Positions 19,790 through 53,645 of a DNA stretch of 64,000 nt are shown here, in pieces (the stretch's first letter is position 1; each line of letters begins with the position of its first letter). The DNA comes from Acholeplasmatales bacterium (lineage in GTDB: Bacteria; Bacillota_I; Bacilli_A; Acholeplasmatales; Anaeroplasmataceae), in NCBI GenBank assembly GCA_024698125.1, contig JAILRQ010000014.1, forward strand, positions 2,679 to 66,678, given 5' to 3'. The notes below the pieces were generated by a model, which saw only the letters and a program-made list of their open reading frames with translations, did not search any database and was not told the origin of the DNA. A program made the translations under genes and the position numbers.

Positions 19790-20746
19790 CTACTTAATTT
19801 TATAAATAAACTTAGATTTCTCATTCACTTTTTCAAGATTAGTATTTTGTGATAAATCTCCCTTGAATTCTTTATGAGTAATTAATTTTATATCACCAGC
19901 ATTATATACACGAGCTAACACATAATTTTTAATTTTTTTACTTGCTGCTAATTCTATATCAGTAACATAAAAAATGTTATCTAATCCACCATTAGTTGTT
20001 TTTACTTCAATATAAACCTTTTCAATAATACCTGTTGCGTTTTTTCTATAAGTTAAAATATCAAAGCCATATGAATCATTAGTTCTTGATACCCAAATAG
20101 GTTTTTCGTCAATATTCAAAGATTTTACATTTCTTTCCTCAATATCTAAAATATATTTCTCACCTACATCACCTATTTTTTGAGACCTAATTTGTTTATC
20201 AATATAATTAATCTTTTTCAGTGGAATTTTTGTAAAATCAATTGAATCATACGAATCAGTTGTACTGGCTGAATTATCTATTTCTGCTTCAATAGAGTCA
20301 GTAACTATAGAATCCTCTAAAAGTGAAGAATAGAAAGCAAAATACTTTTTCTTCCTTGACCTTTCTAATTTTTTGGGTAATTGAATTGGTTTTCTTTCAC
20401 ATTGAGTTACTGTTATAGTACCAGATTTCATTTCATTACAATAATACCAATCAACATTAGGATCTCTAACTAAGCTGGTTGAATTATCTTTATTACTTCC
20501 TATTAAATTTTTTAAAATTTGAATTAAGTTCTTATCACTTTGTAGCACATTTGATAGACGTTTTAAATATTCCGACTTAATATCAACAAGTCTAATTACG
20601 CTATCATCATAATTATCTTTAAGTATAGATATAAACACGTCTTTAAAATACTTTTCCTTGTTAGAAATTTTTATATAATTTTCGTAAGAGACAATGTAGT
20701 TATCATTAATTATTATTTCATTTGGTTTTTTTACTTTCTTTTTCAT
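19790..20746 (-). CDS. DUF3883-type PD-(D/E)xK nuclease-fold protein with an unrecognised N-terminal ~190-aa domain
   Basis: The C-terminus GDVGEKYILDIEE...SYGFDILTY...VYIEVKTT...FYVTDIELAASKK...YVLARVY matches the DUF3883 pattern (GE...GYDI...IEVK...lS.nE...Y.lyrV). Confidence 0.65.
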   Translation of the reverse strand: MKKKVKKPNEIIINDNYIVSYENYIKISNKEKYFKDVFISILKDNYDDSVIRLVDIKSEYLKRLSNVLQSDKNLIQILKNLIGSNKDNSTSLVRDPNVDWYYCNEMKSGTITVTQCERKPIQLPKKLERSRKKKYFAFYSSLLEDSIVTDSIEAEIDNSASTTDSYDSIDFTKIPLKKINYIDKQIRSQKIGDVGEKYILDIEERNVKSLNIDEKPIWVSRTNDSYGFDILTYRKNATGIIEKVYIEVKTTNGGLDNIFYVTDIELAASKKIKNYVLARVYNAGDIKLITHKEFKGDLSQNTNLEKVNEKSKFIYKIK

Positions 20747-20753
20747 ATACTTA

Positions 20754-22322
20754 TTAATTCCTTATTAAAACCCTTCCCAAGGGTAAATTTACTTGAATTG
20801 ATTTAGCAATTTCATCTTTTCGATAATCAATGTATGATTCCTGTTCGTTTTCAAATCTAGCAAAATCCACTGTATTCATCGGAGTTTGAAGTAATATATC
20901 CCTTGTAATAATACTATTATATTTTACAATCTTATGAGTAATATACTGATTTTGAATTTGTTTATTAACACTATCACATAATAATAAATAATTTCCAATA
21001 TTATCTATTAATACCTTTTGTTGCTCTCTATGTGATGGCCATCCATTAGCAGCCCATTCAGAATCCGGATTTTGAGGATAAATATGTTCAAGGTTAATTG
21101 TATCAACATTGACCGTTCCTGAAACATTTCTATATATAACATCAATTATCAATAATGCTTTTTTAATTCCTCTAGACGTATTAATGTCTCCGAGTTTATT
21201 AGAAAAATCGTTTATATTAATTTGCCAAGTTGTTTTATCTGTATTTATTTTATCAATAAGTTTAGCGTTAATAGTAGCTGGTCCTATTCCACTCTTTATA
21301 TCATCAACTATTTCATTTAACAAATATCTAAATGTCTTTGGACTTCCACCATTTAGGCTTAATACAATACTCATCATACATAGTGGTATCATAACCTTGA
21401 TTAAATAATCATGGTTAGTATTGATATCAATATGTTTCATTGCCATTATATTTAAAACATCTAGAAGAGTATTACGATTTATATAATTGATTACATATCT
21501 AATAGGACTATTACCAATCGTACTAAGTAATGTAATAGTATCAACAAAATCTTGATAAGTATCCCTATTTTTTGTTACATACTCTCTCAAAAATGTGATA
21601 ATTTCCATATTATCAAAGTTTTTTTCATAATTTGAAGATTTGAGTTTATAAAAACTAATCAAGGATTGTCTCACCTCTTTCATTTTTGATGTATCAAACC
21701 TTATTCCATATGCCAATGAAAATTGATCTAAAGCTGTTTTAATAACTTCGTCCTTTGATAAAGGCTTCCCTCCTGTGTTTATTTGTTGGAAAATATTGAA
21801 TGCATCATCTGCATTGCTACACTTTTTCATATAGACATATATATTATTCTTTATAACCTTCACCATATCGTTTATTTTATCAACATTTGATTTGACATAA
21901 CTGTATAAATCTAAATATACTTTTTTGAAAGGAGAAGTTACATAATTGTAAAAATGCGTTTCATATTTTTTCTGATTTGAAAACACATCATACGAAATAT
22001 CAAATAGTTCGATATCCTCTACATCAATACCTAATTCAATTGAGACGTCTTTTATAGCCTTAATCAAATTATTTAGTGTTACAATTCTTTGTTGGCCATC
22101 AGCAAACTTTATTTTTCCATCTTCTTCATAATATATAAAATCTAACAAATAAAACTGACTGTTTTTGTCAGCAATAACATTCAATAAATCCTCTTTAAAT
22201 TGTACAATTTCTTTTTCTTTCCATGCGTAAAACCTTTGAAAAATAGGAATTCCTATTTTTCTATCCTGCCAATCATAAAGTTTTACATACTCGGAAGATA
22301 TAGTATTATTTTTTATAATCAT
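20754..22322 (-). CDS. DUF262 (ParB-like NTPase/nuclease) plus DUF1524 (His-Me finger) protein, GmrSD/SspE-like
   Basis: IPIFQRFYAWKEKE and FADGQQRIVTL are DUF262 motifs. NLEHIYPQNP and IGNYLLLCDSVNKQIQNQ are DUF1524 HNH-like motifs. SD GGAGGTG lies 8 nt upstream. Confidence 0.8.
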   Translation of the reverse strand: MIIKNNTISSEYVKLYDWQDRKIGIPIFQRFYAWKEKEIVQFKEDLLNVIADKNSQFYLLDFIYYEEDGKIKFADGQQRIVTLNNLIKAIKDVSIELGIDVEDIELFDISYDVFSNQKKYETHFYNYVTSPFKKVYLDLYSYVKSNVDKINDMVKVIKNNIYVYMKKCSNADDAFNIFQQINTGGKPLSKDEVIKTALDQFSLAYGIRFDTSKMKEVRQSLISFYKLKSSNYEKNFDNMEIITFLREYVTKNRDTYQDFVDTITLLSTIGNSPIRYVINYINRNTLLDVLNIMAMKHIDINTNHDYLIKVMIPLCMMSIVLSLNGGSPKTFRYLLNEIVDDIKSGIGPATINAKLIDKINTDKTTWQININDFSNKLGDINTSRGIKKALLIIDVIYRNVSGTVNVDTINLEHIYPQNPDSEWAANGWPSHREQQKVLIDNIGNYLLLCDSVNKQIQNQYITHKIVKYNSIITRDILLQTPMNTVDFARFENEQESYIDYRKDEIAKSIQVNLPLGRVLIRN

Positions 22323-22340
22323 TCTATCGCCACCTCCAAA

Positions 22341-22718
22341 TTATGCTTTTTGGTAAACTATTCTTTCACCCTTTTTAAACTCATTAATTTCTTTATAAGC
22401 ATATATTCCATCTTGATTTGCCAACCCATCAGGATGAAAAGCATTACTACTAAATAGATTTCTAATAATAACCCTAAATCTTTCTTGCTTATTAGAAGGC
22501 AAAATTTCTTGAAAATATTGTGGAATACTATCCAAGTTATCACAAACTATATCGTAATATAATGGGATTATAGTATCGCTATCAATAGGAGAATTGTACT
22601 CAATGATTTCTTTAACAGCTATTTCTCTTAGTATAACCCAAAAAGCATCTTGGCCAACCTTTTTCAATGAAGCATATTTCAACCTATATATTTCTCTCTT
22701 TAAAACATCTCCAAGCAT
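22341..22718 (-). CDS. 125-aa protein of unknown function, translationally coupled to the methyltransferase
   Basis: SD AAGGAGAAAG is embedded in the last codons of the MTase. The junction is GAC TAA T ATG. No motif recognised. Confidence 0.55.
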   Translation of the reverse strand: MLGDVLKREIYRLKYASLKKVGQDAFWVILREIAVKEIIEYNSPIDSDTIIPLYYDIVCDNLDSIPQYFQEILPSNKQERFRVIIRNLFSSNAFHPDGLANQDGIYAYKEINEFKKGERIVYQKA

Positions 22719-22719
22719 A

Positions 22720-23829
22720 TTAGTCTTTCTCCTTTACTAGTAAAAATAGGTATTCTTTAACATGAATGTCCCTATTTCTTAAGTTTCTGCAACCTCTAAA
22801 TACATTATATTTTTTATCAAAAGCTCTCACATTTCCTAATTCTTCTAACATAGATACCATCTCATCAAACGTAATAAAACCTTCTGAATTGTAAGAAATT
22901 AAAATATATGTAGCATTTAATTTTTGACATAAATCTTTCATGGATTCAAGGGCTTTATTCTTCTTGTTATAGTCTGATTTATTCCATCCTGTAGGAATTC
23001 CAGAAACTTTAGAAATAATAGTAGGTTCTTTATAATTATTAATAAGATTTAACATAAAATAATTAGAACCATAAGGATGCTGATTATATGGTGGATCCAA
23101 GTAGGCTAAATCCACATGAGGTACAATCTTACAAACTTCATTCGAATTTCCTTGCAAAACATGTACCTCACAATGGTTATTACTTAGCACAGGCATTTTC
23201 AGTTCAATATTTGCTAATATCCTTTGTAAAGCATTTTTGCCATCACCACCATACTGCCCAATGTGTGTTTTAGAATTTTTATAAAATCCTTTAAATACAC
23301 CTGAAGTATTGTTTTTAGTTGATGCTTCATATAATAATGGCCCCAATAACAAAGTTTTATATGGCTCAGGAACTTCTTCTAAATATTGTCGCGCCGAATC
23401 CAAATATTTAGCATTTCTAGTTGTATAAAAAACCCTTTCCCCTTCTTTAATATTTAAATCATCATCTGGAGCATATAATTTTGATATAAACCCATTGTTA
23501 ATTAAGGGGCTATTATTTATTTTATTTATAACAAAGTCATACCATTTTCTTAAAGTATCTAAATCTATTTCATCTTCATTTGACAAATAACACTTATTAA
23601 TTGTATAGCTATAATCTTCTAAATCATTTGTATACAGTATATTAGAATATTGTTTTAAATACCTTGAAACTATCCCTGATCCTGCAAAAACATCAAAAGT
23701 ATTTATTTTCTTTGAACCAATTTCTTTTAAAACGACCTTTATAGCATTATCAATAAACGTTAAAAGCGAACGCTTATTTCCCAAATATGTAATTATTTGT
23801 TCAGTTAAAAATTCTTTTCTTTCAGACAT
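22720..23829 (-). CDS. D12-class (Dam-like) N6-adenine DNA methyltransferase
   Basis: YLGNKRSLL (Dam-family N-terminal motif), FAGSGIVSRYL (FxGxG SAM site), LAYLDPPYN (DPPY catalytic motif). I prefer the ATG at 23829 (MSERKEF) over the GTG at 23838 used in the track. Confidence 0.85.
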   Translation of the reverse strand: MSERKEFLTEQIITYLGNKRSLLTFIDNAIKVVLKEIGSKKINTFDVFAGSGIVSRYLKQYSNILYTNDLEDYSYTINKCYLSNEDEIDLDTLRKWYDFVINKINNSPLINNGFISKLYAPDDDLNIKEGERVFYTTRNAKYLDSARQYLEEVPEPYKTLLLGPLLYEASTKNNTSGVFKGFYKNSKTHIGQYGGDGKNALQRILANIELKMPVLSNNHCEVHVLQGNSNEVCKIVPHVDLAYLDPPYNQHPYGSNYFMLNLINNYKEPTIISKVSGIPTGWNKSDYNKKNKALESMKDLCQKLNATYILISYNSEGFITFDEMVSMLEELGNVRAFDKKYNVFRGCRNLRNRDIHVKEYLFLLVKEKD

Positions 23830-23830
23830 A

Positions 23831-23926
23831 TTATTCACTAACCTCTTTAAAATTAAGGTTATATCTTATAAATAAGTACACCTTCGATTCAAATCTAATA
23901 ATGTACTTAGGTAAAACAATTCTCAT
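23831..23926 (-). CDS. 31-aa upstream ORF coupled to the methyltransferase start (speculative)
   Basis: Hand translation: MRIVLPKYIIRFESKVYLFIRYNLNFKEVSE*. SD GGAGG lies 7 nt upstream. Its stop sits 1 nt before the MTase ATG (GAA TAA T ATG). Confidence 0.3.
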   Translation of the reverse strand: MRIVLPKYIIRFESKVYLFIRYNLNFKEVSE

Positions 23927-24139: not shown

Positions 24140-24184
24140 AAAAGGCTACAAGGTCTGATTTTAAAAAATCATTCCTTTGTAGCC
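24140..24184 (-). terminator. terminator hairpin after the DAHP synthase gene
   Basis: Minus strand reads ggctacaaagg...ccttgtagcc (one bulge, long loop with an inner hairpin) followed by tttt. Confidence 0.5.
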
Positions 24185-24205
24185 AACTATAAAAATCTTA
24201 CTTTG

Positions 24206-45515: not shown

Positions 45516-48395
45516 TTATTCAAATATTTGATATTCTCCATCAACATAATGCCAGTAGTTATTACCATCGTCTATGTCAATTTCACTATAGTAATAAACA
45601 TTTCTCTCTATAAGTTCTTCATAATTATTAAGACTAAAATAATCATCTATACTTCCTTCATATAAAATCTTTGTTGATGCTGGTACTCCTTCAAATACCT
45701 TTTCTCCAAATCCCTTTATAGATGAGTTTATTACAATATATTCAAGAGATGTAAATCCAGAGAATGCTCCATATTCTAGATACTCCTGTGATCCTGTAAG
45801 CCAAATTGATTTAAGACTTGTTGGAGTATATAGAGTTGATGGATTAGCTGTAGATTTTGTGTATACACTTGCCTTAGCACTATTTGTAAACTCTGTAATA
45901 GAACCAAATAAGTTACCTAGAACAACGCAGCTAGTACTCTCTGATGTATAGCTTTCCCCTCCAGCAAATGGTATCTTTACACTCTTTATGCTTGAAAATT
46001 GTGCAAAGGCACTATTTTTAATAGACTCCGCATATTCATATATCACAAGAGTTTCTACACTACTACATCCAGCAAATGCTGCAAGCCCTATAGTATCTAC
46101 TGTTTCTAGGTTAAGTGATGTAAGTGAGCTACAGTTATAGAAAGCATAATCTTCAACTGTTGAAGCATATGAGAAATCTATTGTAGTAAGGGCTCTACAA
46201 CCATAGAATGCGTATTTTTCAACTATTGAAATTACCCCTGATGCAGTTGTTAGATTACTACAATTATAGAATGTATATTCATGTATTATACTAGTAGATG
46301 TTGGAATTGTAACCTCTTCTAGTCCTGTCATACCATAGAATGCATATGAAGTAATTGCTGTAACAGTTGATGGAATTATAGTTATATTACATCCATATAA
46401 TAATTCAGTATTTGATGTCTTAATAATAGCATTTGCTCCATTTCCTGAATTATATGATGTATTACCATCTGCAACAATTATACTATCAAGGGCAGTGCAT
46501 CCCCTAAATACCTGATTAGTAGATATTGATGTAACAGATGCTGGAATATATATTGCTTCAAGCTTTGAGCAATTAGCAAATGCCATTTGATAAATGCTCT
46601 TTAGTCCTTCATTTAATGTAATAGTCTTAAGACTATCACATTTACTAAATGCGTAATTCTTTATAGATACTAAAGTTGATGGTAATGTAATGCTTGAAAG
46701 ATTATTACATCCAGAGCATGTGAATAAAGCAATTGTTTGAATACCTTCTGCAAATGTTATACTCTTAAGTCCTAGATATCCATAGAATGAATATTCCATA
46801 TCTATATCTTCTAAATCATTAATTGTGGCGTTTTCTAGTAAGCTATAGGTATTGCCATTAAATGTATTAGCTCCACCCTCATCATAAAGGTATAAGCAAT
46901 TAGCACCACAGATAGGTGATGAATCAATACCTGTTCTATCAATAATCTCCCAATCATCTAAGCTTCCATCATAATAAACATTATTAATCGTATAGTTTGT
47001 GAATGCTCCTTTTTCTATTCTTGATACCTCCTTTGGGATAAAGATAGTATCAAGATCCATATTCATAAATGCTCCCTTTTGAATATATGTGGCATTAGTG
47101 ATTATTACATTCTTTAAAGATTCTGGTACATAATATGTTTGTGTATCTAAATTATATATCTGCTTACAAGCATATGAATAGCTTTGGCTTGTTGTACCAA
47201 AGATATATCCTAATGGATATTGAGTTTGTGTTGAAATAAAGTCAGAAGCACATATAATACCTCCAATAAATGGAGCTTTATATGTTACAAGATTTGAAGC
47301 CTCATTAAATGCTCCAGCTGAAATAGCTGTCACATAATCTGGTACAACAATTTCTGTAACAGTATTATCTACAAGTCCTGTAATAGTAAGTGAATAAGCT
47401 GTTGAGGTAAATATGAAGTTTGACATTTCTTCTTTAAGCTCATATTTAGCTACAATTTCTAATGACTTATCTGTAAATGTAAATGTTTCTGTTTCATTAT
47501 TTGATAAATATTCTCCATTTAGATACCATCCAAGGAATGTGTATCCTAAATAGTCACTCATATTTAATGTAAATGTATCTCCAAGCGCTATTTCATCACT
47601 ACTACTACAAACAGTATCTCCTACCATACATGAAATATATTCACAGCTATCAATATTTGAGCTATAGCTTACATGTAGGAATTTTGCTTCAAGCACAACA
47701 TTTCCAAAAAGAGATGAATCAATTGCTGTAATCTTTGTGTCTCCTAAATACCAACCCTCAAAGGTTGCTCCTTCAAGTGTTGGCTCTAAAAGATCAAAGC
47801 TAGTTGTTGTTTGGTATGATAATGGATTTGATTCATTATTAGTTGAACCATTTAGATTATAGGTAATTGTAAAATAATCCCAGTAGGCAACAAGGCTTAT
47901 ATTCTTTGTTGCGCCAAACTCATACTCAAGGCTTGATGAAACTAAAGTTGTACCATCATACCATCCTAAAAATTGGTATGATAGACTACTTGAGGCTAAA
48001 GCCTTTATAGTACTATTCTTATCAAATTCTTGTGATAGTGTATCACTATCATTTAGTGTAACACTACCTATTTCATTATTATATGATGAAATACTTACTG
48101 TATAGTTTTGAGCTTCTTCTGGTGTAGTTGTGGCACCTTCTGTTGATGAACTATCATCACTACTTCCATCATCAGTTGATGTAGAATCACTAGAAGCTGC
48201 TGTGTCCCCACTAGCTGTTGTGTCTTCGCTTGATGCTGTATCAGTTGAATCTGAAGATTCAGTTGTATCTGTTGTATCACTACTTTCAGTAGTATTAGTA
48301 TTATTACTACTTGTTTTAGTACCACATGATACAATAAAGCTCATTGAAAGAATTCCAACAAGCACTATTAAAAAAGCTTTAGCAATTTTTCTCAT
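45516..48395 (-). CDS. large surface lipoprotein: S/T/D-rich linker, Listeria-Bacteroides repeats, BspA-type LRRs
   Basis: Lipobox FIVSCG. Low-complexity region SSNNTNTTESSDTTDTTESSDSTD. FLGWYDG and FEGWYLG are Flg_new motifs. There are many F..C..L LRR_5 units. The start could be ATG 48395 or 48401. Confidence 0.8.
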   Translation of the reverse strand: MRKIAKAFLIVLVGILSMSFIVSCGTKTSSNNTNTTESSDTTDTTESSDSTDTASSEDTTASGDTAASSDSTSTDDGSSDDSSSTEGATTTPEEAQNYTVSISSYNNEIGSVTLNDSDTLSQEFDKNSTIKALASSSLSYQFLGWYDGTTLVSSSLEYEFGATKNISLVAYWDYFTITYNLNGSTNNESNPLSYQTTTSFDLLEPTLEGATFEGWYLGDTKITAIDSSLFGNVVLEAKFLHVSYSSNIDSCEYISCMVGDTVCSSSDEIALGDTFTLNMSDYLGYTFLGWYLNGEYLSNNETETFTFTDKSLEIVAKYELKEEMSNFIFTSTAYSLTITGLVDNTVTEIVVPDYVTAISAGAFNEASNLVTYKAPFIGGIICASDFISTQTQYPLGYIFGTTSQSYSYACKQIYNLDTQTYYVPESLKNVIITNATYIQKGAFMNMDLDTIFIPKEVSRIEKGAFTNYTINNVYYDGSLDDWEIIDRTGIDSSPICGANCLYLYDEGGANTFNGNTYSLLENATINDLEDIDMEYSFYGYLGLKSITFAEGIQTIALFTCSGCNNLSSITLPSTLVSIKNYAFSKCDSLKTITLNEGLKSIYQMAFANCSKLEAIYIPASVTSISTNQVFRGCTALDSIIVADGNTSYNSGNGANAIIKTSNTELLYGCNITIIPSTVTAITSYAFYGMTGLEEVTIPTSTSIIHEYTFYNCSNLTTASGVISIVEKYAFYGCRALTTIDFSYASTVEDYAFYNCSSLTSLNLETVDTIGLAAFAGCSSVETLVIYEYAESIKNSAFAQFSSIKSVKIPFAGGESYTSESTSCVVLGNLFGSITEFTNSAKASVYTKSTANPSTLYTPTSLKSIWLTGSQEYLEYGAFSGFTSLEYIVINSSIKGFGEKVFEGVPASTKILYEGSIDDYFSLNNYEELIERNVYYYSEIDIDDGNNYWHYVDGEYQIFE

Positions 48396-48544
48396 ATGCA
48401 TTTTCTCTCTTTCTCCAATATATCCAATCAATTTTAACATTTTATTTCCATAAAATCAAATATTGATACACAAATTCTAATTTTATTTTATTATGGGGAT
48501 TAAAAGTAAATAAAAAAGTGTCACTAGGTGACACTTCCTCATAT

Positions 48545-48997
48545 CTACTTCTTTACGATGAACTTAGGGTCCATAGCAGCGATTAGCTTTTGTCTAATCT
48601 CCTCTAGAACTGAATCAGCTGGCTCATATGCATGAGTGTTCATTTGGAAGATTCCTCCCCACTCATCTCCACCCTTATACTTAGGGCATAGGTGGAAGTG
48701 TAGGTGTCCTCCTGTATCTCCATAAGCTCCATAGTTGATCTTATCTGGGTTGAATGCCTTATGCATAGCTGTAGCTACTGCATTTACATCCTCGATAAAA
48801 TCACATCTATCCTCCTTAGATAGCTCAACCATCTCTGATACATGGTCCTTGTAAGCAACTATTACTCTTCCGTACTTAGTTTGCTCCTTGAATACATATA
48901 CATTAGAAGTCTTAGTCTCAAATGCAAAGTATCCAAATTTCTGATATAATGATGGATTCTCATCCTTCATACAATATGCGCAATTAATATCCTTCAT
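48545..48997 (-). CDS. HIT family protein
   Basis: Histidine triad GGHLHFHLCP. Confidence 0.8.
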   Translation of the reverse strand: MKDINCAYCMKDENPSLYQKFGYFAFETKTSNVYVFKEQTKYGRVIVAYKDHVSEMVELSKEDRCDFIEDVNAVATAMHKAFNPDKINYGAYGDTGGHLHFHLCPKYKGGDEWGGIFQMNTHAYEPADSVLEEIRQKLIAAMDPKFIVKK

Positions 48998-49065
48998 ATT
49001 TAAATATCTCCTTTATCTATTTTATTTTATTCTTTTTTACAATATTATTCAATATTATTTATAAT

Positions 49066-49087
49066 AAAAAAATCCCTTACGGGATTA
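49066..49087 (-). terminator. rho-independent terminator after the dGTPase-like gene
   Basis: Minus strand reads atccc-gtaa-gggat followed by ttttttt. Confidence 0.65.
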
Positions 49088-49168
49088 ATTTAATAAATGA
49101 AACAATTAAGCTTCCTCTAATAAGATACCTATATTATATCACAAAAGTTTAAATTGTAAAGACTATAT

Positions 49169-50449
49169 TTACTTTTTGCTAAAAGGCTTTGTTAGCTTTT
49201 TAATCTTATGATCGGCATAACCATCAGTCATTTTAGAGATATCAATTGCAACACTTCTAACATAAGTTCTACCTATCTTTATAAAATCTTTTCTATCATT
49301 AATACTATATTTTATACTTGACTGTTTTTTACCTATTTCATAAATAGTCCTTAACATTTCCTTGACAAAGGAATTAATTAATTCTTTCTCTTTTTCTTTA
49401 TCATTTGAATTATTATTTATTATTATATCTATTCTATCTCGTAGTTTATCACTTAGACTAACATACTTTATTCTTTCAATAAAATCAATTAATAAATCAT
49501 TCGATTCTAATGGATTCTCAAAATAGTATGCATATAATTGTTCAATATACGCTTCTTTAATTTGATCATGAATCCTAATTTTATTGTTGCTTCTAATGAG
49601 GTTACTTCTAACCATATCAAAGTTTTTTATCATTTTGATAAAATTTGAATTCTCATAGTTTTCTTTTTTATTATCAGATGAATAATCTTTAACAAAACTA
49701 TCTATTAATATATTAGCAGCTAATTTAGCTTTTTCACGCATATCTTTTTCGTTTATTTGTCTAAAAATCAAACAACCATCAAGATCAGATTCTTTGTTTT
49801 CTCCTTCGCAAGTCTTCAAATCAATATAATCAGATGAAACTTGGGCTATTTCATCTGCAAATGATACAATCAGTCCTTCATTAGTACCAGGATTGCTATC
49901 ATACTTTATGTCAAACTGATTATTCCCTTTCATTCCTGAAACTACATATCTAAAACCATAGTCAAGATCATCTTGATTCTTATAATAAATTGCAGTATGT
50001 TTCATAACTCCATCACAAACCTTACATTCAAAATCTGTAATTTCTTTCTTATGAACAACTAAATACTCTTTATATAATAATCCAGAATTAATATTATGCT
50101 TAAATCCACATGCTATACCTAGTTCTTTAAAATTAACATCATCAAATAACTTAGTTTCTCCAGAGCATATATTATGAAGTGTTCGTTCTCCAATATGACC
50201 ATAAGGTGTATGTCCTATATCATGCAACAGGGCAATATTTGAGATTAATGTCTCATCCAATTTTTGAACATTTATATCTGAAGCATATTCTTCTTTTAAT
50301 CTTTTAACTATTGCTATTGCTATATCGTTCACCTCAAGAGAATGCATCAATCTAGTATGATAATGATCATCTGCAAGACTACTAAACATTTGTGCCTTAT
50401 TTCTTAATCTATTAAAAAGCTTCATTGTATATATATCAAAATAATTCAT
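49169..50449 (-). CDS. dGTPase-family HD-domain dNTP triphosphohydrolase
   Basis: FNRLRNKAQMF...HTRLMHSLEV...LLHDIGHTPYGHIGE matches the Dgt family N-terminal signature. 426 aa. It starts 22 nt after the dinB stop, with SD AGGAAAAG. Confidence 0.75.
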   Translation of the reverse strand: MNYFDIYTMKLFNRLRNKAQMFSSLADDHYHTRLMHSLEVNDIAIAIVKRLKEEYASDINVQKLDETLISNIALLHDIGHTPYGHIGERTLHNICSGETKLFDDVNFKELGIACGFKHNINSGLLYKEYLVVHKKEITDFECKVCDGVMKHTAIYYKNQDDLDYGFRYVVSGMKGNNQFDIKYDSNPGTNEGLIVSFADEIAQVSSDYIDLKTCEGENKESDLDGCLIFRQINEKDMREKAKLAANILIDSFVKDYSSDNKKENYENSNFIKMIKNFDMVRSNLIRSNNKIRIHDQIKEAYIEQLYAYYFENPLESNDLLIDFIERIKYVSLSDKLRDRIDIIINNNSNDKEKEKELINSFVKEMLRTIYEIGKKQSSIKYSINDRKDFIKIGRTYVRSVAIDISKMTDGYADHKIKKLTKPFSKK

Positions 50450-50471
50450 ATTCTTTTCCTAACTCTTTTCT

Positions 50472-51671
50472 TTATTCTTCTTTTTTATCCTTTAAATCAA
50501 CACCCTTTGTAATAAAGGTATCTCCATATTTATTTTTAAACTCCTTGATAATATCGTTAATATTATCTTCCTTCTCTAATATAGACTTCCAAGTAAATAG
50601 ATTATACTCTAATGCGAGATCACTACTCTTCATAAGATTAGAATATCCAACTCCAATAAGCCTATATTCCTTCTCCTTGAAGTTATCATATAACAAATCC
50701 TCTATTACATCATTTATTTCATATAGGTCATCAGTATAATCTATAGTCTTACTTCTTGTGATAGTTTTAAATTCACTATCACGAAGAGTAATAGAGATAG
50801 TCTTTGTAAGATAATCCTGCTCCTTTAAATCCTGATGTAATCTTTTAGCCATATTTTTAAGCTCTATTAAAATATCATCATAATCAAATAGGTTTTGATC
50901 ATATGTTTGGGATGTAGAGATGCTCTTAGAATCCTCATATCTTTGAGGATCTACTATATTTGAGGAATGTCCTGTTAGGGCATTCTTAAATGATTTAAGC
51001 ATTCTATCACCTATAACATCCCTAACCTTATCCTCATTATCTGGATTCATGAAATCTCCAATAGTTTTTATTCCTACCTCAACAAGCCTTGGGGCAGTCT
51101 TCTTTCCAACACCATAGATATCAGCGACATCTAGTGGATATAGGATATCCTTTATCTCTCTTATTCTTAAGACTGTAATACCAAGTGGCTTTTTAATATC
51201 TGATGCCATTTTGGCTAAAAATAGAGTTGGTGCTATTCCTATAGAGCATGGTAGATGTAGCTCCTTTACAAGACGGAGCTGAATCTCCTTAGCTACCTCT
51301 ATAGGATTTCTTTTCTCACTTATTTCAGTCATATCGGCATATACCTCATCAATAGAGGCTACCTCTATTGTTTTAGTATATTCCATTATAAGATTTTTAA
51401 ATAATCTATGATATTTCTTATATTCCTCAAATTGTGGGTTTACAACAATTAAAGATGGGAGTAGTCTATATGCCTCAATAAGTGGCATAGCACTATGAAT
51501 ACCATACTTTCTTGCTTCATAGGATGCAGTTGATACTACACCCTTCATAGAGTTTTCCCTACCTACTGCAAATGCCTTACCCTTTAAAGAAGGATTTTTT
51601 ATGACCGCTACAGAGCAGAAAAACATATTCATATCAATATGGAAGATTATTCTTACATTACTATTTTTCAT
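50472..51671 (-). CDS. dinB: DNA polymerase IV (Y-family)
   Basis: IFHIDMNMFFCSVA, SIDEVYADMT, and a GVGKKTAPRL HhH motif. Confidence 0.9.
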   Translation of the reverse strand: MKNSNVRIIFHIDMNMFFCSVAVIKNPSLKGKAFAVGRENSMKGVVSTASYEARKYGIHSAMPLIEAYRLLPSLIVVNPQFEEYKKYHRLFKNLIMEYTKTIEVASIDEVYADMTEISEKRNPIEVAKEIQLRLVKELHLPCSIGIAPTLFLAKMASDIKKPLGITVLRIREIKDILYPLDVADIYGVGKKTAPRLVEVGIKTIGDFMNPDNEDKVRDVIGDRMLKSFKNALTGHSSNIVDPQRYEDSKSISTSQTYDQNLFDYDDILIELKNMAKRLHQDLKEQDYLTKTISITLRDSEFKTITRSKTIDYTDDLYEINDVIEDLLYDNFKEKEYRLIGVGYSNLMKSSDLALEYNLFTWKSILEKEDNINDIIKEFKNKYGDTFITKGVDLKDKKEE

Positions 51672-51751
51672 AAAAATTCCTCTTTCAATTTCAAATTTTA
51701 TAGTATATAATGAATATATCGTAGTAAACGAAATAACATTATTTAAAGTAG

Positions 51752-51934
51752 GTGACTATCTTGGCAAATAAGAATGAGGTACAAGAGAAAAAGGAAAATA
51801 AGGGAAAGGTATATCATAACCCACTTCAAACAGTTTGGGGTAAGATACTTATTTGGACATTATCTCTTGCAATGGTTTTAGGAATTCTAATTGCATTAAT
51901 TTGGAACATTGTTGAAAACTTTGGACAAGTATAA
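51752..51934 (+). CDS. small single-TM protein (start uncertain: GTG 51752 or TTG 51761)
   Basis: Lys/Glu-rich N-terminus then the TM helix ILIWTLSLAMVLGILIALIW. SD AGGTGA fits the TTG start. Confidence 0.3.
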   Translation: MTILANKNEVQEKKENKGKVYHNPLQTVWGKILIWTLSLAMVLGILIALIWNIVENFGQV

Positions 51935-51941
51935 TTGATTT

Positions 51942-51967
51942 AAAAGGAGCATTCAAGCTCCTTTTTT
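51942..51967. terminator. bidirectional terminator (also serves recN)
   Basis: aaggagc-attcaa-gctcctt followed by tttt. Confidence 0.7.
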
Positions 51968-53645
51968 ATTGCTTAAGCATTTCCTTTGCCACCTCAATAA
52001 AGTGAGATGATAGGGTGTTTCCACCAATCATCTTGGCAATCTCCTCTACTCTTTCATCCATGTTTAAGGCCTTAATCTTTGTAGTAGTTCTTCCATCCTT
52101 ATATGACTTAGATATAAGGAGCTGATTATCGGCCTTAGAGGCAACGCTTGGAAGATGTGTGATACATAAAACCTGTGAATATTCTGAAATACTCTTCATC
52201 TTCTTTGCAATCTCTAGAGCGGCGTTACCACTAACTCCTGTATCTATTTCATCAAATACCATAAGTGATAGGTTAGCCTTCCTTGCAAAATATGATTTAA
52301 ATGCTAGCATGATTCTTGAAAGCTCTCCACCAGATGCAGTCTTATGTAGTGGCTTTAAAGGCTCACCCTTGTTTAATGAAATCATGAAGCAAACACTATC
52401 AATTCCACTATCAAGGAAGATTGAATCATCCTTAATATCCTTCTTTTCTACCTCATTAAACTCTACCTTAAAGCTACAATCCTTTAAATCAAGATCCTTA
52501 CATTCAGCCTCAATTGCCTTTTCAATTAGCTTGGCATTCTTTCTTCTTATATTAGATAAGGCCATAGCCTTGGCGAATGCGTCATCATAAAGCTTTGAAA
52601 GATTTTTATTCTTTTCTTCTATAACAGAATCAAAATCCTCATTTAAGGCTATCTCCATCTTAATATCTGCAAGCTCCTTTAAAAGCTCATCAAGATTCTT
52701 TTTATATTTAGCCTTACAATCCTCTATAGCCTTTAAATCATCCTGAAGCTTATTAAGCTCATCCTCATCAAAGTCTAGGGAATCTATAGCCTTATAGATT
52801 GTAGATTTAGCCTCAGTAAGATTTGAGTAGGCGTCAAATATAATATCTGCCTGCTCCATATATTCCTTATCATAATCTCTTATATCATCAAGTGCCTTAT
52901 AGGCATTGTAGATATTATCTAGTGAGAAATATTCACTTTCCATATTTTGATAAGCCTCATTAAGTGATTTAAATATCTTATCATAATTTGAAAGCTTGGA
53001 TATTTTCTCTTCTATTTCAATATCCTTTCCAGGATATAAATCTAAAGCCTCTAGCTCATCACGCTCAAAGATTAAAAACTCTAATCTTTCCTGTGATGAC
53101 TTATGTCTCTTCATTATATCTAAAAGCTCCTTTAAAGCTCCCTTATATTTTGATAATGAAATAACATAGGCGTTATATGAATCCTGGAATGCCTTATCCT
53201 CCTTTGAATCAATAAAGGAAAGATAGGTATCAGGATTAATTAGCCTAAAGGTATCATGCTGTACATGAATATCTGCAAGATATAATGCGATGTTTTTTAA
53301 GGCCTGCTGTGTAACTGGGGTATCATTTACCTTTATTACATTACGGCCTGAGGTTGAAATCTCACGGTATATTGTAAGAGAGTCCTCACTTTTAATTCCA
53401 AGAGAGTCAAGAATATCATTTATATTAGGGTTCTTATAATCAAATACTCCCATAATATAAGCCTTACTCTCTCCATAACGTACCATATCAGAATCAGCAC
53501 GTGCTCCAAGTAGGAGTGAGATTGAGTCAATAATAAGTGATTTACCTGCTCCTGTCTCTCCACATAGTACTGTCATATGGTCACTAAAATCAATAGTTAA
53601 ATCTTCAATTATCGCAATATTTTTAACAGATAATCTTTTAAGCAT
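51966..53645 (-). CDS. recN: DNA repair protein RecN
   Basis: Walker A GETGAGKSLIIDS, long coiled coil, signature ASGGELSRIMLA, Walker B MVFDEIDTG. Confidence 0.92.
   Translation of the reverse strand: MLKRLSVKNIAIIEDLTIDFSDHMTVLCGETGAGKSLIIDSISLLLGARADSDMVRYGESKAYIMGVFDYKNPNINDILDSLGIKSEDSLTIYREISTSGRNVIKVNDTPVTQQALKNIALYLADIHVQHDTFRLINPDTYLSFIDSKEDKAFQDSYNAYVISLSKYKGALKELLDIMKRHKSSQERLEFLIFERDELEALDLYPGKDIEIEEKISKLSNYDKIFKSLNEAYQNMESEYFSLDNIYNAYKALDDIRDYDKEYMEQADIIFDAYSNLTEAKSTIYKAIDSLDFDEDELNKLQDDLKAIEDCKAKYKKNLDELLKELADIKMEIALNEDFDSVIEEKNKNLSKLYDDAFAKAMALSNIRRKNAKLIEKAIEAECKDLDLKDCSFKVEFNEVEKKDIKDDSIFLDSGIDSVCFMISLNKGEPLKPLHKTASGGELSRIMLAFKSYFARKANLSLMVFDEIDTGVSGNAALEIAKKMKSISEYSQVLCITHLPSVASKADNQLLISKSYKDGRTTTKIKALNMDERVEEIAKMIGGNTLSSHFIEVAKEMLKQ

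Follow-up and report, generated by a model that had tools for sequence, protein, structure and literature searches.

Sequence analysis suggests a methylation-protected restriction operon built around a GmrSD-family nuclease and an undescribed 125-residue protein

Organization of the operon

We analyzed a stretch of 64,000 nucleotides from an Acholeplasmatales bacterium (contig JAILRQ010000014.1), referred to as the window in the following. Four adjacent genes on its minus strand appear to constitute a horizontally mobile, methylation-protected restriction operon, in which a GmrSD-family nuclease would act together with S125, a 125-residue adaptor or recognition subunit, and a NOV_C/DUF3883 protein would serve as an optional second nuclease. 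Judging from sequence comparisons, we rate the chances of this reading as slightly better than even.

The genes are arranged head-to-tail with intergenic gaps of 1, 18 and 7 nucleotides, and a purine-rich, Shine-Dalgarno (SD)-like stretch can be read from the sequence ahead of each start. The first gene (positions 22720–23829) codes for a D12-class (Dam-like, alpha-type motif order) N6-adenine methyltransferase (MTase) of 369 residues. Its open reading frame (ORF) spans positions 22720–23838, but translation more likely begins with the ATG at 23829, which yields the 369 residues that are also called on contigs of the same strain. The MTase gene is followed by those of S125 (22341–22718; 125 residues, a member of an undescribed family that we define here), of a 522-residue GmrSD-family protein with a DUF262 and a DUF1524 domain (20754–22322) and of a 318-residue NOV_C/DUF3883 protein (19790–20746). 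This layout, including the gaps and the SD sequences, agrees with the initial annotation of the window. The motifs quoted there are all present and are invariant in family alignments: YLGNKR, FAGSG and DPPY; FQRFYAW, DGQQR, EHIYP and NYLLL..N; GE..GFDI..IEVK. As likewise stated in that annotation, one MTase (PF02086) is wired to two nuclease folds (PF03235/PF07510 and PF13020). No PADLOC, Pfam or NCBIfam model covers the operon as one system.

A fixed core of three genes

A search with the S125 alignment through a single genome for each GTDB species gave 16 loci, distributed over Bacilli, Erysipelotrichaceae, Acholeplasmataceae, Christensenellaceae and metagenome-assembled genomes (MAGs) of Clostridia. 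In each of the 16 an MTase gene is located immediately upstream of S125 and a GmrSD-like gene immediately downstream (tblastn). The order of this core is identical and the junctions are tight or overlapping throughout, with identities of the three proteins going down to approximately 50%, 53% and 39%. The same core is present on metagenome contigs reached via homologues of NOV_C or GmrSD (L026, L027, L028, L118, L119 and a contig of GCA_016648615). Altogether, MTase, S125 and GmrSD genes follow each other in the same order in 23/23 cassettes from many Bacillota lineages, and there is no uncoupled example among them. The three proteins also diverged together. Over 18 cassettes the pairwise identities correlate with coefficients of 0.59 (MTase and S125), 0.71 (MTase and GmrSD) and 0.82 (S125 and GmrSD).

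The fixed evolutionary unit is MTase-S125-GmrSD, and NOV_C is optional. The initial annotation had described a unit of four genes. This description holds for the first three, whereas the DUF3883 gene is absent from all 16 species-representative cassettes. Its suggestion of a recurrent defense operon instead of a chance adjacency is borne out by the recurrence of the arrangement in many unrelated contigs.

The methyltransferase and the endonuclease position

The MTase matches the D12 family (PF02086) with an E-value of 1.4e-19 and the PADLOC model MTase_II (PDLC03257) with 384 bits and an E-value of 1.5e-115. Its FAGSG and DPPY motifs are intact, so that it carries the S-adenosylmethionine-binding and catalytic motifs of a type II restriction-modification (R-M) MTase. 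A protective, self-marking role is predicted for this enzyme. A single-sequence search of the PDB with the MTase found nothing.

The closest annotated relative (47% identity) is encoded on the Paracoccus marcusii plasmid pCP157_17. There, the MTase gene is followed by a gene annotated by NCBI as an EcoRI-family type II restriction endonuclease (REase), i.e. the two form a type II R-M pair. The MTases of two further loci, L029 and L030, are 53% identical to the window MTase over the full length. In L029 the protein encoded 3' of the MTase matches PF02963 and carries PD...EVK and GNAIER motifs, the latter being a hallmark of EcoRI. Between the GmrSD and EcoRI contexts, the middle region of the MTase, which putatively recognizes the target, shows the same degree of conservation as the catalytic regions. 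Since full-length MTases of 47–53% identity precede EcoRI-family REases elsewhere, S125 and the GmrSD-family protein take the position that in sister operons belongs to a classical REase of the EcoRI family. The initial annotation saw no canonical R-M layout here. A nuclease of this kind in the REase position is indeed unusual, but as the MTase family pairs with EcoRI-family REases elsewhere, an R-M system is the best interpretation of the layout.

A small gene of the helix-turn-helix (HTH) family HTH_3 directly adjoins the start of the MTase gene, or overlaps with it, in L014, L021, L027 and L028 as well as in the EcoRI-context operon L029. Divergent XRE-type HTH genes are found in seven further loci. 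HTH genes in front of the cassettes would correspond to the usual logic for restraining a toxic nuclease and point to an R-M-style regulation.

The GmrSD-family nuclease

The 522-residue protein matches PF03235 (GmrSD_N, 2e-21) and PF07510 (GmrSD_C, 1.3e-11). As in the GmrSD family, the N-terminal DUF262 domain carries DGQQR and the C-terminal DUF1524 domain carries (D/E)HxxP...N...N. Among 30 homologues the residues D75, Q77, Q78, R79, E412, H413, P416, N444 and N453 are invariant, and G76 is conserved in at least 90%. Based on these motifs we predict an NTP (nucleoside triphosphate)-dependent restriction nuclease, in which DUF262 would be a ParB-like NTPase and DUF1524 a His-Me/HNH nuclease.

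A single-sequence PDB search with this protein gave nothing. In a family profile search the nearest solved structures were DndI (PDB-entry 9jfl, 1.6e-9) and SspE (6jiv, 4.6e-7); BrxU (7p9k) scored only 0.033. The initial annotation had likened the architecture to GmrSD, BrxU and SspE, which is correct with respect to the domains and to SspE. The closest solved structures, however, are DndI and SspE and not BrxU. Since a GmrSD-like enzyme from E. faecalis retains its toxicity in E. coli free of methylation (PMC11322646), modified targets are not a family-wide requirement.

Two variants of the gene were observed. In P0232 (L118:1647-3593) the GmrSD-family protein has an extra C-terminal DUF4357 domain (PF14267, 9e-15), with MTase and S125 still upstream. 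In an Erysipelotrichaceae MAG (L020:8383-9941) the GmrSD gene is frameshifted near codon 116; MTase and S125 are intact, and an IS3-like transposase gene is located just downstream. This split gene could reflect decay that affects the nuclease first or an assembly error.

The S125 protein

The initial annotation saw no recognizable motif in S125, and the protein is a true orphan, with no match in Pfam, NCBIfam or PADLOC. The AlphaFold2 model (mean predicted local distance difference test score, pLDDT, of 96) consists of five helices and a C-terminal hairpin. Foldseek searches of PDB and BFVD with it resulted in nothing above noise; vague, winged-helix-like matches had TM-scores of 0.42 or less. 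The protein is not a spurious ORF, as more than 265 close homologues were found, the alignments of which have a mean column identity of 72–74%. A profile search of 1.84 billion representatives yielded only 33 clusters. The core motif of the family, with the window protein as alignment reference, is QERFRVxxRNxFSSN...GLxN.

Natural fusions give an indication of the function of S125. In the proteins P0278 and P0284 it forms the N-terminus of an HNH nuclease. In relatives of this HNH domain the N-terminal domain varies and can be, for example, McrB_N, which looks like the pattern expected of a nuclease chassis with exchangeable targeting modules. Two metagenome scans for the genomic context of P0278 and P0284 gave only relatives of the HNH domain that lack S125. 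A fragment of 182 residues from the representative library (P0288) runs in frame and without a stop from the C-terminus of an MTase into S125 (…EYLFLLKKGVN-MSFGDVLRKK…) and is a possible natural MTase-S125 fusion. In view of the fusions to HNH nuclease and MTase, S125 is best seen as a targeting, recognition or docking subunit and not as an inhibitor. Because the protein is slightly acidic (isoelectric point, pI, of 5.85), it may dock to the nuclease or to the MTase just as plausibly as it may read DNA directly.

In P0279, P0282 and P0283 (216–224 residues) an S125-like domain is followed by a Cys-rich C-terminal extension (CxC...CxxC). We also considered S125 as a minimal PD-(D/E)xK nuclease, as the window copy contains HPD...ExK. 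This was rejected: D97, E113 and K115 are not conserved family-wide, and apart from a single hairpin the model consists of helices.

The NOV_C/DUF3883 protein

The fourth protein comprises an N-terminal domain of approximately 140 residues, an acidic, disordered linker and a C-terminal PD-(D/E)xK nuclease domain. PF13020 matches residues 195–286 (1.4e-10). In the PADLOC model PDC-S36, residues 172–305 align with profile positions 139–271 of 280 (4.8e-17), and the N-terminal half lies outside the match. E196, D229, E247 and K249 are invariant in 16 NOV_C homologues, the latter two forming the E247-V-K249 motif. The AlphaFold2 model (pLDDT 87) has the REases MspI and DpnI as top matches, which are not significant, and no significant PDB match was found for the fold, the N-terminal domain included. 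A DUF3427 domain was not detected in the N-terminal part at E ≤ 0.1. DUF3883 is the catalytic domain of characterized enzymes (PMC6765204), and the predicted role of NOV_C is that of an accessory second nuclease.

NOV_C is represented by 16 full-length homologue clusters in all. Each of the eight clusters whose genomic context was inspected lies at the 3' end of an operon in which an MTase of this family comes first or, on contigs that are cut upstream, directly follows GmrSD. NOV_C follows the GmrSD gene of the cassette in six of the eight (window, L026, L027, L028, the GCA contig with L032, and L033/L034), the EcoRI-family REase of an MTase-headed operon in one (L029), and the MTase gene directly, as a bare pair, in one (L030/L031). 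As the MTases of L029 and L030 are full-length relatives of the window MTase at the identity given above, NOV_C is an optional add-on, though one that is linked to this family of MTases.

The N-terminal domain of NOV_C may be related to S125. Comparison of the two by hhalign gave probabilities of 13–40% and E-values of 3e-4 to 2e-3; reciprocal hmmsearch matches were weak (about 10 bits). Both have an [RK]NL[FI][SG]SN motif in common and, in the models, the order and spacing of secondary-structure elements. We regard these features as suggestive of homology and no more than that.

Mobility and genomic context

The genes flanking the core vary from locus to locus. In four unrelated genomes a gene of a serine recombinase (resolvase) is located right upstream of the cassette and divergent from it (L010:5999-6631, L012:970-1560, L013:6123-6791 and L024:6048-6773), which suggests a mobile unit that includes the recombinase. 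Since the flanks differ and resolvase genes are adjacent, the core moves horizontally as a block. In the window, the G+C content of the island is 26.9% compared to 32.1% for the whole window, which together with the adjacent resolvase genes is a sign of mobility. S125 had no matches in collections of plasmids, phages and viral contigs. One locus adjoins an apparent tRNA gene, as judged from a tRNA-like, spurious ORF translation without a tRNA scan. An empty-site allele was not found among contigs of the same strain, where every contig that reaches upstream of the HD-GYP gene has the island.

Downstream of NOV_C we observed an AAA_13/SMC-like ATPase gene in L029 (3122-5035) and a gene for a helicase of 1481 residues (AAA_11/AAA_12) in L028 (4799-9244). 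Given these genes 3' of NOV_C, the operon tends to reside in wider defense islands.

The island in the window is flanked by a DAHP synthase gene and an HD-GYP gene. A hairpin followed by a T-run (positions 24140–24186, minus strand) directly after the DAHP synthase gene is the terminator of that gene. For this reason, the island is probably transcribed from its own promoter in the AT-rich spacer of approximately 210 nucleotides, where a convincing -35/-10 pair could not be made out. Between the NOV_C and HD-GYP genes the sequence shows no evident terminator. A small upstream ORF (uORF) of 31 residues (MRIVLPKYIIRFESKVYLFIRYNLNFKEVSE) is located at positions 23831–23926 (minus strand, including the stop codon). 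It has a GGAGG SD sequence and meets the MTase start in a TAA-T-ATG junction. Gene callers report it on contigs of the same strain (L001, L002 and L004). It is conserved in no cassette outside this strain, where its position is taken by a controller-type HTH gene or by nothing. The uORF may serve in translational coupling or as a leader.

A second stretch of low G+C content was observed at window positions 45516–53645 (24–28% at 49–51 kb). It contains ordinary genes, coding for a BspA-type leucine-rich-repeat surface protein, HIT and HD-domain proteins, a DinB-family polymerase and a RecN-like ATPase. No defense genes were recognized in this stretch.

Proposed mechanism

Based on these results we propose the following mechanism. 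The D12 adenine MTase is translated first and would mark the host DNA with N6-methyladenine (m6A) at its target sites. The GmrSD-family protein and S125 would jointly use NTP hydrolysis to find and cut DNA without the m6A mark. Self DNA would be spared, because methylation either blocks recognition or triggers an NTP-driven release. Targeting would be supplied by S125, which could read the site or its methylation state or, alternatively, dock the nuclease onto the MTase. NOV_C would be a second nuclease against which the mark of the same MTase family protects, and its N-terminal domain may be S125-like. With methylation as the mark, the operon would thus be the counterpart of the phosphorothioate-coupled SspE and DndI. 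The direction of the modification dependence and the roles of S125 and NOV_C are the steps that we infer, whereas the linkage, order, conservation and co-divergence of the genes, the intact catalytic motifs, the domain fusions, the substitution in the REase slot and the controller genes of relatives are observed.

A wider reading is possible as well. S125 might be a new small module linking one family of Dam-like MTases, either through their mark or through the proteins themselves, to nuclease chassis that can be exchanged, an idea that we put forward tentatively. The chassis would then comprise a GmrSD-type NTPase-HNH protein in trans, an HNH nuclease by fusion and a DUF3883 PD-(D/E)xK nuclease by fusion via an S125-like N-terminal domain; such a range of partners is conceivable, with the balance leaning against it. 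In this equally speculative case, the operon would be the first methylation-sensing counterpart of SspE and DndI and would define an NTP-driven, three-component R-M class outside types I–IV.

Alternative explanations

Several observations weigh against a methylation-protected restriction operon. The 522-residue protein matches the PADLOC models of HEC-06, Orf5 and SspE, of which HEC-06 scores best. Characterized HEC-06 systems are stand-alone and block modified T-even phages (bioRxiv 10.1101/2024.01.29.577857; 10.1101/2025.02.28.640651). The DUF3883 enzymes YenY4I, McaZI, BwiMMI and EfaL9I are modification-dependent, and two of them merely adjoin a type II R-M system (PMC6765204). The window operon has neither a controller gene, which is an optional hallmark of type II R-M systems, nor a remnant of one. 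All cassettes were located from S125 or from close homologues of GmrSD or NOV_C, and more distant GmrSD relatives without an MTase lie outside this sample. The mildly acidic pI of S125 and the absence of matches to a known DNA-binding fold above noise speak against taking direct DNA reading for granted. A search for the recognition site via palindrome avoidance gave no signal, as GATC and AATT are equally depleted in low-GC controls that do not carry the operon. In the window (positions 1–64000) GATC occurs 95 times compared to 236 expected (z = -11), and CATG and AATT are depleted as well. Because unrelated low-GC contigs show equal depletion, this cannot be attributed to the operon.

Part of this evidence would also fit a stack of independent modules, which we regard as unlikely, though it deserves some weight. 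S125 and GmrSD would then be a type IV system against hypermodified phage DNA, NOV_C another type IV enzyme and the MTase an orphan or leftover type II methylase, all inherited as a block. In line with the top-ranking HEC-06 models, HEC-06 homologues as well as DUF3427-DUF3883 enzymes are modification-dependent (bioRxiv 10.1101/2025.02.28.640651; PMC6765204), and the latter can adjoin type II R-M systems with no interaction between the two (PMC6765204). McrB_N-type readers of modified bases, moreover, are among the relatives of the HNH nuclease to which S125 is fused. A passive orphan MTase, however, is expected to be lost or swapped, whereas the cassettes combine 23/23 linkage with a fixed order, overlapping junctions, correlated divergence down to approximately 40% identity and differing flanks. 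A stack of modules is also at odds with the classical EcoRI-family REase filling the same slot in sister operons, with the controller-type HTH genes upstream of operons and with the in-frame MTase-S125 fusion fragment. A different division was offered by the initial annotation, which considered a type II system of MTase and DUF3883 stacked with a type IV enzyme. In that case MTase and NOV_C would be a true type II pair, and S125 and GmrSD an unrelated type IV insertion between them. The bare MTase-NOV_C pair in L030 and L031, the occurrence of this NOV_C subfamily only with this MTase family and the intact PD-(D/E)xK residues are in favor of such a pair. The division did not hold up well, since the MTase stays with S125 and GmrSD when DUF3883 is absent, as in the 16/16 species-representative cassettes. 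Furthermore, homologue clusters of S125 outnumber those of NOV_C by approximately 265 to 16, and in L029 the MTase already has an EcoRI-family partner before NOV_C, which makes NOV_C an add-on and not the primary REase. We therefore consider this pairing quite improbable.

It is more improbable still that the operon works in the manner of a toxin-antitoxin or abortive-infection system, with S125 inhibiting the GmrSD nuclease until infection and the MTase acting in regulation or epigenetically. The small size and slight acidity of S125, the position of its gene immediately upstream of the nuclease gene and its covariation, which is strongest with the nuclease (r = 0.82), are in favor of an inhibitor. 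In P0278 and P0284, however, it is covalently joined to the N-terminus of an HNH nuclease, an unlikely design for a releasable, stoichiometric inhibitor, and the obligate MTase and the substitution by EcoRI-family enzymes would be left unexplained.

Comparison with known systems

GmrSD-family nucleases are catalogued as type IV enzymes, i.e. modification-dependent and stand-alone, and the only known partnered members are SspE and DndI, via phosphorothioation. If the proposal of a methylation-protected restriction operon is true, the GmrSD family also supplies the restriction component of a self/non-self system based on methylation. The mediator would be a module of 125 residues that had not been seen before, and a single methylase would give protection from several nucleases in a stack. 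The literature searched, which was incomplete, contained no account of an MTase coupled to a GmrSD-family nuclease or of the S125 family. Annotation pipelines would probably not recognize the operon as one system and would list an orphan MTase, a type IV enzyme and a hypothetical protein separately. Such splitting would misreport the methylation biology of the host and its gene-transfer barriers, which is relevant to the engineering of uncultured gut Bacillota that carry the operon.

Among type IV systems, GmrSD, BrxU and HEC-06 have the same Pfam domains and catalytic motifs as the 522-residue protein, and they act alone on modified cytosines (PMC12707154; bioRxiv 10.1101/2024.01.29.577857). 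The nuclease of the present operon does not stand alone: a D12 MTase and S125 are encoded upstream of it in all 23 cassettes. The C-terminal DUF3883 PD-(D/E)xK domain of NOV_C is found as well in McaZI, BwiMMI and EfaL9I, which with 323–338 residues are also close to it in size. NOV_C has the C-terminal DUF3883 of the DUF3427-DUF3883 group and lacks the N-terminal DUF3427, the sensor of modified cytosine. In contrast to the McaZI group, members of its subfamily were observed exclusively alongside one adenine-MTase family, the bare MTase-NOV_C pair among them.

The EcoRI-family type II R-M systems (pCP157_17 and L029) have a homologous MTase (47–53% identity over the full length, middle region included), the gene of which also comes first. 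The L029 operon, furthermore, has the same controller-type HTH gene upstream and NOV_C downstream as relatives of the window cassette. They differ in the REase slot, which contains S125 and an NTPase-HNH protein here and not an EcoRI-family PD-(D/E)xK enzyme. In LlaJI-type systems, an NTP-dependent, McrBC-like nuclease acts on unmodified sites, and cognate MTases give protection. They have the concept in common with the present operon but no homology, since they contain McrB and McrC (AAA+ GTPase and PD-(D/E)xK nuclease) as opposed to DUF262-DUF1524 and S125. The recruitment of a McrBC-like nuclease as the restriction arm of a methylation-protected system is a general precedent (PMC12707154).

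The logic of the operon is found again in SspABCD-SspE and IscS-DndBCDE-DndI, which also contain a DUF262 NTPase with DGQQR and a DUF1524 His-Me nuclease and in which the nuclease is, as here, genetically coupled to a DNA-modification module of the host. The initial annotation regarded GmrSD-type enzymes as always stand-alone. This applies to HEC-06, GmrSD and BrxU but not to SspE and DndI, which are DUF262-DUF1524 nucleases working with a host modification module (PMC11662687; PMC12707154). When DndI senses the self mark (phosphorothioate), its ATPase activity is stimulated and it dissociates from self DNA (PMC11662687). Differences are found in all parts. The modification module here is a single m6A MTase in place of the sulfur-insertion genes, and no dnd or ssp genes are present in the operon or its neighbors (DAHP synthase and HD-GYP). 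S125 is an extra, obligatory subunit, and the nuclease is shorter (522 residues compared to 596–771). The similarity is remote, with E-values of 1e-9 to 1e-7 by profile and nothing by single-sequence search. In its gene content the operon thus appears to be of the R-M type and to resemble the logic of SspE and DndI, while being a member of neither the phosphorothioate systems nor the stand-alone type IV systems.

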